64,000 bases of DNA from Escherichia coli (GTDB taxonomy: Bacteria; Pseudomonadota; Gammaproteobacteria; Enterobacterales; Enterobacteriaceae), in NCBI RefSeq assembly GCF_003018255.1, contig NZ_CP027440.1. One strand, given 5' to 3'. Shown here piece by piece: positions 58,200 through 62,819 of this stretch. The notes beneath the pieces were generated by a model. It searched no databases. It was not told the DNA's origin and saw only the letters and a program-made list of their open reading frames with translations. Position numbers and translations under genes: made by a program. Each line of letters begins with the position of its first letter. Position 1 is the stretch's first letter.

Positions 58200-61100
58200 T
58201 TATTTCACCTGCATCCCGGTCCATTCGCTCCCTGCCGCAACACTTTGCTGTGCAGGTGCATAGGAACGCACATAACGAGCAGGAGGCAGAACGAATTGCC
58301 CTTTTTGCGAGAAGCGCAGCAAATGGCGGAAAGTGACCGTTCCCGTCAGTTCTTTCACCGGCACCATATAGGCCAGTTTGCCCATTTCATTTCGCGCTTT
58401 TTCCAGCAACTGCCCCTGCTGTTTTCCAGCGTTCGGTTTATTGACCGAAATGCCCCACGTAGTCCTCTCAACGTCAGCCCCTGGCGGGAGCGGTACTTCC
58501 ACCTGACCGTAGCGCAGAACGGCATCCTGCTCGCTGGTAAGCGTAATTTCATCGAGATACAGCGCATCGCTGTCAATCTCATTGCTGGTCACCGGCTGCA
58601 GAGTAAAGCTCATCTCTTCTTCACCGGGGATAAGCCGATACAACTGGCGTTCAACGGTCACCGGAATGTTACTTTGTTGAGCCGTTTTTGCCGGTTCACG
58701 CCAGCGGACCTGCACATTTTGCGGCGATAATTCGTCACCAAAAGAGAGAATGTCCGGCACACCCTGACCAACCCAACGCCAGTCTTCGCCCCCTCCAGTT
58801 AACTTATGTTTAGCCCATGCGCCCGCAGGCGCAGGCAAAACAACTGGAGGCATTGTCGCCATATATTTCGCCAGCCAGTTCATGGCCAGCGCGCGCTCAA
58901 TAGTGGATTGCTCAGCGGTCAAACCACTTAAAATAGCGGCCGCCTGGGTAGCGTCACCACCGCTATTGAGCAGCACAACCGTGTGCGCCAGCGGCTGATT
59001 GCTGTTTGCCGCTTTATCCCACGCATATTGCTGAACCTGTGGCATCACCGTGGACTTCAACTGCGCTTTTTTCAGCAACGTCATGGTTAAGACGTTTGCC
59101 ACCGCATCTGCCAGTGGAGATTCCGGTGTATCGAGGATCAGGCTGTCATTGATATCGCTGGTGTCTTCCTCAGAGAAATCTTCAGTTTTAGTTCCGCGCC
59201 GGGCGATAGCTTCATCCAACCCTTTCAACAACGTTTTGCACGGTAGATTCATCTCCTGTGCCCACGCCAGCACCAGCGCGCGATGCAATATCGGCATGTT
59301 ATCTGCCTGCTCGGCATAACTGTCGAGCATATGTTGCCAGTAATCCGGTTGCTGCGTTACGCCGAGCGCCTGGCTGGCCTGCCAGTCGGCGTACCATGCC
59401 CATGCCGTCAGGAAGGCGTCGCCATTGCCATCTTCACCCCACCAGGTAAAGCGCGCTCCGGGCCCCGCCAGTTGCATCAGCCGCAGACGGTTATCCTGAA
59501 TCATCTGACGAATGTCGTTAGCGGCGGCACTTTGATGATCGGCAAGTGAACGCCAGGCGAGACTGAGCGGGATCAGACGGCTACCGGTGTTGATCACGCC
59601 CCCCCACGGTTCATCGACTAACGCATCAAGATTGTTACGGAAAATCTCCTGCGGCGTTTCGCTACTTTGTAGCTGGATATTGCTCGCCTGCTCGGGCAAC
59701 ATCAGCGCGTTATCGCCACCGCCGAGCATGACGTTTTTCTGCTGTTCAACGGGCCAGCTGTTATCCACAAAAGACAGTTTTGTGCTAATGCTGTCCTGTA
59801 CTTGCCCATTTTGTTGCAGTTCTGCACTTAACAAGCCAGATTGCTGAATATTCTGCGTCAGCGAAATATAATTCGCCCCTTTGTGCAGCGTCAGCGTCTG
59901 GCGCATCTCAGCACCTGCAAATTTAGTCACCAGCGCCACCGGTTCGTTATCCTGCTGACTGAAGATAAACAGTCCTGCTGCCGGTTTGTCGCCCATGCGA
60001 TACACCGTTGGCATACTCCACTTCATGTAGAGATTTTTTTCCGAACGCAGATAAGCACGCCCCTGCCCGACCAGCCCGTCGCCGTTCATCCCACGCGCGG
60101 TGATGCGCCAGCGGGTTAACGAATCAGGCATCAGGAACGTGAAATACGCTTTGCCTTGTTTATCGGTTGTGAGTGACGGCATCCATGCCGCGGTATCCAC
60201 CTCTTCACGCCGTGGACGTTCAAGCATTTTTACTCGCCGCTCGCTGCGGTTAGTCGCGCCAGGCGCAACCGGCTCGCTGGAGAGCGCCTGGTCGTAGCTG
60301 ATAAACGACAGACTGGAGCTGGTACGCACATTGTTACGCCCCAGCGGATAGAAAAATTTGCCGATATTCGGCGCGATTTCCGGTTGCAGCGCGTAGATCA
60401 TTTCATCGACCACACCAACCGTTAGCTGCGCAGAAACAGGTTTACCTTTCAGCGACGAGGTTAATTCGACATTGACCAGTTCACCAGGCTGGTAATGGGT
60501 TTTTTCCGTTTTCACCCGGATATCCAGCTGGGGAACGGCAACTTTGATCCCGGCGTTCTGAAAACTGTACTGACCGTTACGGGTATACAGCACCGAAAAA
60601 GTGATGTTAGGCGCAAAGGAATTGCTCACTGGTATGCGGGCTTCATACTGGGTATCGTTTAAACGTTGTAACGTCAGCCAGTTTGCCGGATGCGATAGCA
60701 GCGACTGCTGTTCAACGCGATCGCGTTCCAGCGTCAATAATGCTTCATCAATTGGCTCCGGGAAGGTAATCAGCATCTTCGCGGTTTCGCCTGGCTGGTA
60801 CAGCGTTTTATCCGCCACGATATCTACCGTACCCGTATGCGCCGTGCTGCCCTTACCGCTGACTGCATGGCTTAACCCGGCGAGAATTAAGCCGTCTTCA
60901 TCGCGTAATGTCAGATTGTAGTTGCCAGGTTTATCGAAATTGACGGTAAAGGATTTGCCGCCTGACGGTAGATCTCCGCTATGGCTCGTGCGGTCTTCGA
61001 GACGCAACCATTCATACGTAACAGGAACCTGTTTTGAAGATTCCAGCGCGGCATAACGGAACACAACCGACTCGCCGCTATTACTGTATTGTGCGGCGGT

Positions 61101-62819
61101 ACTTAAAGAGTAATGCGCCAGGCCGCGTTCAATGAGGATCTCTTTGGTGGTGGTGACGCGATACGCCGCGCCGTCACTGGCGGAGACGGTTAACAAATAG
61201 CGGCTCGGTTTATCGGCGGCGGGGAGATTTAAAGCCACATGACCGCTATCATCGGACACCGTTTCGCTGCCTTCCAGCGACACGGGAAAACGTCCGGCAT
61301 AACGCAAATCGTTACCGACCATTGATAATTGCTGAGCGCGCAAACTTAACTGCACGCGGGCATCTTTTACCGGCTCACCATCCGGGTAAAGCAGTTGCAG
61401 TTTGCCGCTGACCGCTTCGCCAGTTTTGAACTCTTTTTTGTCGAGAGCTAAACCAATCTCGAAATGTGGCTTGATATAGTTGGCTACGCGAAAACTACTG
61501 CTATAGACCTGATTGCGGTAAGCCAGGCGTAACTCATAACCTCCGGCAACGGCATTTTCTGGCAGGCGGAAACTCCCCTGCCCGCCATTGCGCGCATCCA
61601 GCGTGACATTGACGGTTTGCAACAGACTGCCGTTAGCGTCCAGCACCGAAAGCTTCGCCGGGGCGCTGACGATGGGGGATGAATGCAACGGGTCGTGGAA
61701 CTCGCGGCCCATCACTTTGACATCAACACGATCGCCTGCACGATACAGAGGGCGGTCGGTAAAGATATACAAGCGGGTGTTGTAGATTTCGCTTTCGTAG
61801 AAAAAATTCTCGGAGACAAAAACGCCGCCTTCAGCATCTTTACCCAGAATGTATGAACGTTCCGGCGATATATGTTGTAACTGCAAGGTACCGCTGTCAT
61901 CGGTCACACCGCGGGTCATCACGCCAAGACCGTCAGTCCACAAGATCTCTGATCCCGGCTTCGCTTCCCCCTGTTTTTTACCCGCGGTCCACACCAGAAG
62001 CTCGTTACCTGACACTTTGCTAAGCGCCACGGTATCGGAAACAAACACCACCGTCGTCGCCCGATACCCACCTACCATCGCCTCGACGAGGTACAGCCCC
62101 GGCTCTTGCTTGCCTAGCGGAATATAGATGTTGCCCGGCTGCGGCGAGATGAAATTGCTGGATGCGCCTTCCAGTTTTACCCCTTGCTGCGGCTCGACCG
62201 GTTTAGCCTGCCATAATGGGTAACGGAACTGTTCCACCAGGGGATATTTTTTCAGCGGTGAAAACTGGTTGTTCTGTACATAACGGGAAGGTTTAATAAT
62301 GGCATTACCGAGCTGTAATTCGGGTAACGCCTGAGTCACATTCTGCCGAGACTGAGAAGAAAAAGTACGCTGCATCACGCGGCGAGATTTGCCGTACCAG
62401 TTATCCCACAGCCAGGTCAGCGTATTGTTCAGCCCGTCGCCCAAATATTGCGGTTGCACCACAATGCGATGCAGGTTTTTCTGCTGGCGCAAAAATGCCA
62501 TCGGGTCAGGAATACGATACAGGCGAACGTCCACGCCGCCGTACTCTTCCATCTGATAGCGTCGATAATCACGCCCCGGCGCTTCCAGTCGCACTTTCGT
62601 CTCTTCACTGCTGCTAAAACTGCTGTCAGCGAGCAAAAAGAATGTTCCCCCGGCGGGCGGCGCATAGTTGCTGGAAGGAAGCGAATCATCAGCATTAGCA
62701 AGCCCTGTTCCCACAAGAGACAGGGACAAGCACGCTGCTATCGCGCCAGAAAATTTAAACGATAAATGCCAATGAAATTGGGATTGGAATCGTTGGGTAT
62801 CCATCGGGTGTCCTTCCAT
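58200..62819 (-). CDS. yfaS: alpha-2-macroglobulin-family protein YfaS, full length
   Basis: Uninterrupted ORF of 1539 codons from the first ATG (second ATG at 62804 would give 1534 aa); N-terminal hydrophobic signal-like segment; no CxEQ thioester motif found on my reading (M-L-P-E-Q at about residues 1041-1045). Confidence 0.85.

Follow-up and report, generated by a model that had tools for sequence, protein, structure and literature searches.

Type II macroglobulins and their relatives

MagD (PA4489) of Pseudomonas aeruginosa, encoded in the magABCDEF operon, is like YfaS of Escherichia coli a multi-domain alpha-2-macroglobulin (A2M) with a signal peptide and without the thioester cysteine, and YfaS belongs to the same class, the Type II bacterial alpha-2-macroglobulins. 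This class has been defined by the absent thioester cysteine (PMC5764988). Descriptions of Type II macroglobulins that lack the CXEQ motif go back to Budd 2004 (cited in PMC3328433, PMC3735191 and PMC5764988), and a second, thioester-less macroglobulin of E. coli is already known from that literature. An earlier paper states only that the thioester is absent 'in many species' (PMC3328433), and the equation of Type II with thioester-less in later papers is a simplification.

MagD traps a protease non-covalently after its bait is cleaved, as was found using an engineered TEV protease site, and it binds MagA, MagB and MagF; MagB, a protein of 589 aa with a transmembrane helix, anchors MagD to the inner membrane (PMC5764988). 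Methylamine has no effect on MagD (PMC3735191). In P. aeruginosa, magD protects against cell-wall-targeting type VI secretion effectors, including VgrG3, which is described as lysozyme/chitosanase-like and is not a protease, and the authors call the true function of the MagD family open (PMC12663445). The first-pass annotation had offered non-covalent trapping as an alternative mechanism for YfaS; the experiments that demonstrate such trapping were published in 2018 for the Pseudomonas homologue (PMC5764988), and for YfaS the mechanism would follow by homology. We found no study of E. coli YfaS in the open-access literature, where matches to the gene name are dominated by the Yale Food Addiction Scale.

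The Type I proteins ECAM/YfhM of E. coli and Sa-A2M of Salmonella (PDB 4ziu, 4ziq, 4rtd, 5a42 and 4u48) are homologous to YfaS in fold, and around the reactive site ECAM/YfhM is like the YfaS family in having PYG-x-x-x-x-TAS followed by an LTAY/LTAW motif. In contrast, YfhM has C1187-L-E-Q, the lipobox LALAGC and pbpC as its neighbor, whereas YfaS has G-V-I-N, no conserved lipobox, and yfaT and yfaQ as neighbors. The Type I feature of adjacency to pbpC (PBP1c) is missing from yfaS; in K-12, pbpC adjoins yfhM at a different locus. Within the A2M/complement superfamily, C5 and chicken ovostatin are members without a thioester. Complement C5 resembles YfaS in that the full macroglobulin scaffold is kept and the Cys-Gln thioester is lost; however, the losses are independent and in unrelated lineages, and C5 is a cleaved signaling and assembly factor rather than a trap and has no operon partners.

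An intact yfaS gene in a five-gene operon

The window, by which we mean the whole 64,000-nucleotide stretch of E. coli DNA that was analyzed, carries the operon yfaA-yfaT-yfaS-yfaQ-yfaP on the minus strand, with yfaS in the center.

63358..64000, minus strand: yfaA (DUF2138), 3' part only, as the window end cuts it; the counterpart of magB, which encodes the membrane anchor
62738..63361, minus strand: yfaT, 207 aa, DUF1175, 3' end overlapping the yfaS ORF; magC by operon position
58200..62819, minus strand: yfaS maximal ORF, 1539 codons, ATG to TAA, by direct reading; full-length matches in E. coli genomes are annotated 'alpha-2-macroglobulin family protein'
62802..62817, minus strand: probable true yfaS start, the ATG of Met6 (62804-62802), with a Shine-Dalgarno-like GGAAGGA (62817-62811) at a spacing of 6 nt
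62691..62819, minus strand: N-terminal export signal of YfaS, codons 1-43, read from the translation and compared with relatives
58701..58703, minus strand: yfaS codon 1373, TGG (Trp) here and TGA in K-12, the b4500 lesion
56550..58199, minus strand: yfaQ, 549 aa, tandem DUF2300, beginning directly after the yfaS stop; magE by operon position
55769..56545, minus strand: yfaP, 258 aa, DUF2135/YfaP family; magF by operon position

YfaS shows two features of the Type II class: its operon contains the DUF2138, DUF1175, DUF2300 and DUF2135 genes, and Gly1074 stands in the Cys column. The mag operon has the same partners in the same order (MagB/YfaA, MagC/YfaT, the A2M, MagE/YfaQ and MagF/YfaP), and K-12 YfaA starts with the hydrophobic N-terminus MSGEKKAKGWRFYGLVGFGAIALLSAGVWA. 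The mag operon has six genes and the E. coli operon five, the gene at the magA position being missing; this second YfaP-like gene is absent from all four of the enterobacterial loci (4/4). The NCBIfam scan of YfaS, YfaQ, YfaP and YfaT returned no meaningful family.

The 1539-codon frame had been reported as uninterrupted from ATG to TAA; this holds at 58200-62819, on the minus strand, which had gone unstated. Of 5426 complete E. coli genomes, 5362 (~99%) have full-length yfaS, 21 have a partial match only and 43 have no match, and given its length and this full-length presence the ORF is far beyond chance. When compared with the K-12 allele, yfaS has a dN/dS of 0.065 with a synonymous-site difference of ~11%, and the gene is under strong purifying selection over its whole length. 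The ORF is ordinary, intact wild-type E. coli yfaS, and its product is a multi-domain Type II bacterial alpha-2-macroglobulin, predicted to be periplasmic.

The first-pass annotation had taken yfaS of K-12 MG1655 to be a frameshifted pseudogene, and had suggested that the strain analyzed here may hold a functional copy. The K-12 gene (b4500) is indeed a pseudogene in the standard annotation, but what breaks it is a single nonsense substitution at codon 1373, where TGG has become TGA, and not a frameshift: the 4620-nt alignment of the two alleles has zero gaps, and the RefSeq note on K-12 yfaS reads 'internal stop'. The TGA1373 allele is present in 364 of 5426 complete genomes, and those carriers that were sampled and could be placed by name are all K-12 laboratory derivatives. 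The copy in the window is intact but in no way special; because at least 4500 of the 5426 genomes carry TGG at this codon, an intact yfaS is the norm in E. coli. Thus, K-12 yfaS is a lineage-specific pseudogene through W1373 to stop, and the truncation removes the C-terminal bacterial MG10 domain.

Translation of yfaS likely starts at Met6, judging from the Shine-Dalgarno-like site upstream of its ATG; the first ATG (62819) is without a comparable site. From Met6 the protein would be 1534 aa, the same length as in the K-12 b4500 annotation. PGAP places the start at a GTG, codon 36, and this automatic RefSeq start appears to cut off the signal peptide. The export signal has basic R10 and K22, a hydrophobic stretch, and a signal-peptidase-I-type site, A-N-A with DD behind it. 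YfaS of E. coli and E. albertii also has a lipobox-like I-A-A-C30, whose Cys other genera do not conserve. E. coli YfaS has two cysteines in all, C1194 and the signal-peptide residue C30, as compared to reportedly none in MagD.

A thioester-type domain with a degenerate reactive site

YfaS has the fold features of the A2M/complement superfamily: MG, bait-region and A2M domains, and a helical thioester-type domain near the C-terminus.

61485..61775, minus strand: MG2 macroglobulin domain, residues 349-445 (Pfam PF01835, E=4.6e-19)
60387..60824, minus strand: alpha-2-macroglobulin bait-region domain (A2M_BRD), residues 666-811 (Pfam PF07703, E=1.9e-17)
60240..60290, minus strand: candidate bait segment, residues ~844-860, the least conserved stretch between highly conserved blocks
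59946..60194, minus strand: A2M family domain, residues 876-958 (Pfam PF00207, E=4.6e-12 and 3.1e-12)
59688..59702, minus strand: M-L-P-E-Q, residues 1040-1044, not the thioester position (family alignment and AlphaFold model)
58863..59654, minus strand: thioester-domain-like all-helical domain without a thioester, residues 1056-1319 (AlphaFold2 model and Foldseek)
59574..59612, minus strand: degenerate thioester site EPWG-G1074-V-I1076-N1077-TGSRL, residues 1070-1082, with the GVIN codons at 59589-59600
58254..58580, minus strand: C-terminal bacterial MG10 domain (bMG10), residues 1414-1522 (Pfam PF17973, E=1.1e-05)

In the AlphaFold2 model of residues 861-1539 (pLDDT 89.6, pTM 0.86), 12 helices at residues 1056-1319 (196-459 of the modeled segment) are set between beta-domains. 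Foldseek matched the whole modeled C-terminal segment to native ECAM (4ziu) at E=1.3e-22, and matches to ECAM, Salmonella A2M (4u48), C5, C3, A2ML1 and TEP1 range from 1e-17 to 1e-22; the best, with E near 1e-22, are those to native ECAM, Salmonella A2M, C5 and C3, and the C5 structures have TM-scores of 0.61-0.62. The Pfam scan of YfaS gave no thioester-domain match, so the helical domain is divergent in sequence. A single-sequence search of solved structures with YfaS returned weak matches only, to C5 and CD109 in the MG2 region, and BLASTP of YfaS against YfhM in the thioester region was marginal (E=0.1, 22% identity over 278 residues), a lead and not proof. Reaching ECAM by sequence needed a family profile, which matched the ECAM structure at E=3.9e-31 and paired the family YPYGCVEQTAS with ECAM YPYGCLEQTAS.

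The C-x-E-Q motif is absent from the whole YfaS protein, as the first-pass annotation had said. The stretch that it had named as the positional equivalent, MLPEQ, lies at residues 1040-1044 rather than 1041-1045 and does not represent the thioester site: a family alignment of 40 sequences matches it to a conserved 'LP.DA' segment ~30 residues upstream, and the AlphaFold model puts it in an inter-strand loop that precedes the helical domain. The residues that do correspond to the thioester are G1074-V-I-N1077, which align with the family motif YPYGCVEQTASRL and with ECAM YPYGCLEQTAS and which are located where a helix begins in the AlphaFold model. At this site Cys is replaced by Gly1074, Glu by Ile1076 and Gln by Asn1077. 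Because C-V-E-Q has decayed to G-V-I-N, YfaS forms no covalent thioester, and the claim that it cannot form the Cys-Gln bond is borne out by the replacement of all three chemically relevant residues. We also considered C1194 as an alternative reactive cysteine and rejected it: its context, C-K-T-L, has no Gln, and Val is the consensus residue of the family in that column.

Column conservation in the YfaS family alignment falls to 0.28 at residues 850-859 as compared to 0.68-0.81 in the neighboring conserved blocks. The variable segment is ~17-25 residues long and sits at the expected bait position. We infer that residues ~844-860 are a candidate bait, a position that matches the gap between MagD fragments 2-821 and 882-1495 (PMC5764988).

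Loss of the cysteine, partner genes and the proposed working of YfaS

To see how far the absence of the cysteine extends, we compared 81 relatives' loci, of which 27 keep the thioester Cys; absence of the Cys is therefore not true of the whole YfaS/MagD clade. GVEQ is found in most of the fetched Pseudomonas loci, in contrast to GVIN in enterobacteria including E. coli; no other clade in the comparison has lost the Glu and Gln as well, and the series reads CVEQ, GVEQ, GVIN. Pseudomonas orthologues from species other than P. aeruginosa (that is, other than MagD itself) are only about 45-55% identical to YfaS, with values of about 52-55% over nearly the full length, and thioester-bearing relatives are 35-48% identical over the C-terminal 679 residues; the latter, as they keep C-[VAT]-E-Q, are presumably covalent trappers. 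On a rough neighbor-joining tree of 121 sequences, made without bootstrap, the Cys column changes state at least 11 times, a count that is approximate. The operon-defined family may have borne the thioester ancestrally and lost the reactive Cys many times independently with the five partner genes fixed throughout, a reading that we put forward tentatively and regard as rather doubtful.

Of the 81 fetched loci, all that are long enough to reveal the gene order have yfaA-T-S-Q-P. This includes the loci that keep C-x-E-Q, namely all the betaproteobacterial loci, one Oligoflexia genome and five Pseudomonas loci, and the same five-gene operon as in E. coli is present in Paraburkholderia, Ralstonia, Janthinobacterium, P. 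alcaligenes, P. citronellolis and others. The suggestion that loss of the thioester explains the dedicated partner proteins is not supported, because the operon is conserved with or without the motif; nor do the partners stand in for the lost thioester, since relatives that still bear one carry these partner genes too.

Taken together, these data make it very probable that YfaS is an intact Type II macroglobulin of the MagD kind with a decayed thioester site, the K-12 copy being broken by the W1373 stop. By homology with MagD, YfaS would most likely be exported via its Sec signal peptide and tethered to the inner membrane as part of a complex with the other operon products, with YfaA, the MagB equivalent, as the putative anchor. 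A foreign enzyme would cut the variable bait (~844-860), which would lead to a conformational change of YfaS and non-covalent trapping of the attacker, and in this way YfaS may protect the periplasm and the cell wall. The function of YfaS may differ from that of MagD, because GVIN is more decayed than GVEQ and because there is no gene at the magA position.

There is a small chance that YfaS is not a protease trap and instead became, after loss of the reactive site, a structural scaffold or sensor of a cell-envelope complex, which for example positions the NlpC/P60-like YfaT on peptidoglycan or binds non-protease cell-wall-degrading toxins stoichiometrically. The replacement of all three thioester residues in enterobacteria is in keeping with this, as are the conservation of YfaT, which is the most conserved partner (~70-75% identity to Pseudomonas), and the protection by magD against the non-protease effector VgrG3 in a family whose function is called open (PMC12663445). 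However, the A2M architecture is kept, including a variable bait-like segment between conserved blocks, the helical and MG domains have a native-like arrangement in the YfaS model, and MagD trapped protease once its bait was cleaved (PMC5764988), all of which favor the trap. The strong purifying selection over the whole of yfaS is compatible with a trap or a scaffold.

That yfaS is decaying in E. coli, with thioester loss and the K-12 stop as stages in the erosion of a disused system, is highly improbable and is largely refuted already by the selection and prevalence data: the progressive decay of the motif, the nonsense allele in K-12, and the 43 genomes without a match and 21 with a partial match would be in line with it, but it is at odds with the low dN/dS between alleles that differ at ~11% of synonymous sites, with full-length copies in ~99% of genomes, with a stop allele found in 364 genomes only, the sampled ones being laboratory K-12 derivatives, and with the conservation of the whole operon in E. 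albertii, Citrobacter and Serratia.

G1074-V-I-N1077 is the right target for any engineering of a thioester, for example restoring C-V-E-Q. Nearly every wild E. coli has an intact yfaS, and K-12 strains, as natural yfaS truncation mutants (W1373 to stop), are a poor model for this system. The repeated loss of the Cys in one operon family and the RefSeq start issue may help researchers who work on bacterial macroglobulins and on defense against type VI secretion. If the reading of repeated loss is true, 'no thioester' would be wrong as a definition of the Type II class, and the YfaS/MagD family would be a natural series for what a thioester adds to a bacterial macroglobulin, one that would let us ask if covalent trappers ward off other attackers than non-covalent ones do.

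The yfaS reading frame and its K-12 lesion

We translated the window and compared yfaS base by base with the K-12 MG1655 gene:

58200–62819, minus strand: yfaS ORF, uninterrupted, 1539 codons from ATG to TAA (translation of the window)
58701–58703, minus strand: K-12 lesion site at codon 1373, TGG in the window and TGA in K-12 (alignment to K-12)

The first-pass annotation had called yfaS intact without stating its strand, and we found that this holds for the minus strand; the plus-strand translation of 58200–62819 is riddled with stops. It had also described the K-12 copy as a frameshifted pseudogene. 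K-12 yfaS is indeed annotated as a pseudogene, in NC_000913 (b4500) as well as in a PGAP-annotated MG1655 record (note: 'internal stop'), but there is no frameshift: both genes are 4620 nt long and align without gaps, with 141 substitutions (96.9% identity) and 26 amino-acid differences. One of these differences is the TGG to TGA change, a single nonsense codon that cuts off the final 167 residues, including the bacterial MG10 (bMG10) domain. The dN/dS of yfaS against K-12 is 0.065, a ratio that indicates strong purifying selection. The whole ato-yfa block (10.6 kb, 53402–64000) is collinear with K-12, gap-free and 97.4% identical.

To count each allele, we took 33-mers with the variable base at their centre and matched them to 5426 complete E. 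coli genomes, requiring a 28-base exact word so that every match carries the queried allele. The TGA allele is present in 364 genomes, and among the 60 carriers listed, every one whose name or source allows it to be placed is a K-12 laboratory derivative (e.g. MG1655, W3110, DH5alpha, XL1-Blue, JM109, MC1061 and Keio strains). The TGG allele occurs in two sequence versions, in 1412 and 3088 genomes, and yfaS is found at a coverage of at least 80% in 5362 of the 5426. Thus, an intact yfaS is the E. coli norm and the window is unremarkable. A yfaS match is absent from 43 genomes and only partial in 21 (the collection includes, e.g., NZ_AP027622.1); one genome retains just 105 nt, between a CoA-transferase gene and a DUF1175 gene, which suggests a deletion, and one match sits on a plasmid. 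Alleles at least 99% identical to that of the window occur in only 76 of 5383 genomes (best, strain 14EC020 at 99.9%), so the window comes from a comparatively under-sampled lineage.

Three versions of the yfaS start are in use: the maximal ORF (1539 aa), Met6 in K-12 b4500 (1534 aa) and the PGAP start, GTG at codon 36 (1504 aa). There is no ribosome-binding site upstream of the first ATG, and GGAAGGA lies at 6-nt spacing before the Met6 ATG (62804–62802). The PGAP start would strip most of the hydrophobic signal sequence from YfaS. The ORF and the 3' end of yfaT share 82 nt (62738–62819, minus strand), or 67 nt when counted from Met6. The in-frame upstream peptide is conserved out to Pseudomonas and betaproteobacteria (loci L005–L084 of the relatives) and probably just reflects the conserved C-terminus of YfaT, which is encoded in the other reading frame. 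In E. coli and E. albertii the signal sequence contains a lipobox-like I-A-A-C (residues 27–30, 62730–62741), with an A-N-A/DD signal-peptidase-I-type site 13 residues downstream; its cysteine is missing from the Serratia, Citrobacter and Pseudomonas orthologues.

Fold and degenerate thioester site of YfaS

Pfam recognizes four domains in YfaS, and the thioester-domain family has no Pfam match in the protein:

Residues 349–445: MG2
Residues 666–811: alpha-2-macroglobulin (A2M) bait-region domain
Residues 876–958: A2M domain
Residues 1414–1522: bMG10

An AlphaFold2 model of residues 861–1539 (58203–60239), built on a 40-sequence family alignment, reached a pLDDT of 89.6 and a pTM of 0.86 and has a 12-helix domain (residues 1056–1319) with beta-domains on either side. 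Foldseek matched it to native ECAM (YfhM, the Type I member of E. coli; 4ziu, E=1.3e-22), Salmonella A2M (4u48), complement C5 and C3, A2ML1, TEP1 and CD109. Given this confidence and these matches, the assignment of YfaS to the alpha-2-macroglobulin/complement superfamily is secure at the fold level. TM-scores are 0.5–0.6 to native ECAM, C3 and C5 as compared to 0.2–0.34 to activated conformations, so the model predicts a helical domain packed like that of a loaded trap, although there is no thioester for it to protect.

A scan of the full translation bore out the claim that YfaS has no C-x-E-Q; its two cysteines are C30 in the N-terminal signal sequence and C1194 in a C-K-T-L context. To find the equivalent site, we searched residues 861–1539 against 1.84 billion representative proteins and obtained 3203 relatives. 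Among 39 full-length relatives (25–43% identity), 29 carry C-[VIAT]-E-Q within a conserved block, YPYG-C-V-E-Q-TASRLIPL, with which YfaS residues 1070–1085 align. The YfaS-family profile hits the sequence of the ECAM crystal structure (E=3.9e-31) and pairs family 'dyPygcveqtaSrLip' with ECAM 'AYPYGCLEQTASGLFP', the experimentally established thioester site (C1187 of YfhM). Direct BLASTP of YfaS against YfhM gave a marginal alignment in the identical register, with FLTAW paired with WLTAY. In classical thioester domains the cysteine sits at a helix N-terminus, the position that residue 1074 holds in the model. From the family alignment, the ECAM match and the helix position, the equivalents are:

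Thioester Cys: YfaS Gly1074
Thioester Glu: YfaS Ile1076
Thioester Gln: YfaS Asn1077

The conclusion that YfaS lacks a thioester is thus stronger than first claimed, because all three thioester residues are replaced. The first-pass annotation had instead taken M-L-P-E-Q as the equivalent position. That string is present, at residues 1040–1044 and not 1041–1045, but the family alignment and the model rule it out, as it sits about 30 residues upstream, under family 'LP.DA', in a loop between beta-strands.

Partner genes and thioester status in relatives

In the window, the minus strand carries yfaA (truncated at the edge of the window), yfaT, yfaS, yfaQ and yfaP, with the ato genes on the opposite side. 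We surveyed one genome per species, giving 80 loci (E. albertii, Serratia oryzae, Citrobacter youngae, 55 Pseudomonas loci, betaproteobacteria and one Oligoflexia genome), and a metagenomic contig encoding relative P0004 brought the total to 81. The tetrapeptide at the thioester site was tallied over these loci, leaving out the window itself (GVIN):

GVEQ: 49 loci, Pseudomonas
CVEQ: 15 loci, betaproteobacteria, the Oligoflexia genome, five Pseudomonas and the metagenomic contig
CAEQ: 10 loci, betaproteobacteria
CTEQ: 2 loci, betaproteobacteria
GVIN: 1 locus, Serratia oryzae
GVVN: 1 locus, E. albertii
GAIN: 1 locus, Citrobacter youngae
GVEE: 1 locus, Pseudomonas
GVEH: 1 locus, Pseudomonas

By this tally, the site is most eroded in the enterobacterial clade. 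The five cysteine-keeping Pseudomonas are ML96, P. citronellolis, P. alcaligenes, P. turukhanskensis and GV071. A neighbour-joining tree built from 121 sequences has Cys at its root and mixes Pseudomonas lineages that bear Cys among those that bear Gly. Fitch parsimony requires at least 11 state changes on it, an approximate count because the tree has no support values.

By tblastn with the E. coli proteins, the order yfaA-yfaT-yfaS-yfaQ-yfaP is found in all loci that span enough sequence to reveal it, with or without C-x-E-Q. Since the partner genes are present regardless of the thioester, its loss does not explain the dedicated partners, contrary to what had been proposed.

In Pseudomonas, yfaA is preceded by a second YfaP-like gene (about 40% identity to YfaP), at the magA position; in betaproteobacteria this second gene comes in tandem after yfaQ, and all four enterobacterial loci lack it (window yfaP, 55769–56545). 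Two YfaP-like matches occur in 55 of 76 loci, and the P. capsici locus has the upstream copy only. MagA looks like a MagF/YfaP paralogue missing in E. coli.

Class and proposed mode of action

YfaS belongs to the A2M superfamily and to its Type II (MagD/YfaS) class. It has neither the CXEQ of thioester-bearing A2Ms nor the pbpC neighbour of Type I A2Ms (the YfhM class). Both forms occur in E. coli, with CXEQ in only one of the two (PMC5764988). MagD, the Type II protein of the P. aeruginosa magABCDEF operon, is periplasmic and inner-membrane associated, has no thioester cysteine and is insensitive to methylamine (PMC3735191). It traps a specific protease non-covalently once that protease has cleaved the bait, and binds MagA, MagB and MagF one-to-one; of these, MagB, a 589-aa protein that has a transmembrane helix, serves as its anchor and stabilises it (PMC5764988). 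The magD gene gives P. aeruginosa protection from cell-wall-targeting type VI secretion effectors (PMC12663445).

From its homology and shared operon with MagD, we infer that YfaS acts as MagD does. The main alternative, that YfaS is not a trap but a scaffold or a binder of non-protease toxins, seems improbable. As a MagD-like trap, YfaS would be exported via a Sec signal peptide and would join YfaA (MagB-like), YfaT (MagC-like), YfaQ and YfaP in a complex at the inner membrane. An attacker would cleave its variable segment around residues 844–860, the least conserved stretch (conservation 0.28), which lies between conserved blocks; cleaved YfaS would then change conformation and entrap the attacker non-covalently.

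Non-covalent trapping by MagD (PMC5764988) and the K-12 pseudogene (reference annotation) are already on record, and the main points of the first-pass annotation on YfaS had all been published; the feature is real, ordinary and already known. Earlier wording that the Type II thioester is absent 'in many species' (PMC3328433) shows that motif heterogeneity within the class had been noticed, and the later narrowing to 'lacks the thioester' is a simplification. Our analysis adds the exact K-12 lesion and its spread over E. coli genomes, the exact degenerate thioester site in YfaS, and the independence of the partner genes from thioester status. The interest that remains is modest and concerns the cysteine, which one operon family has lost repeatedly.
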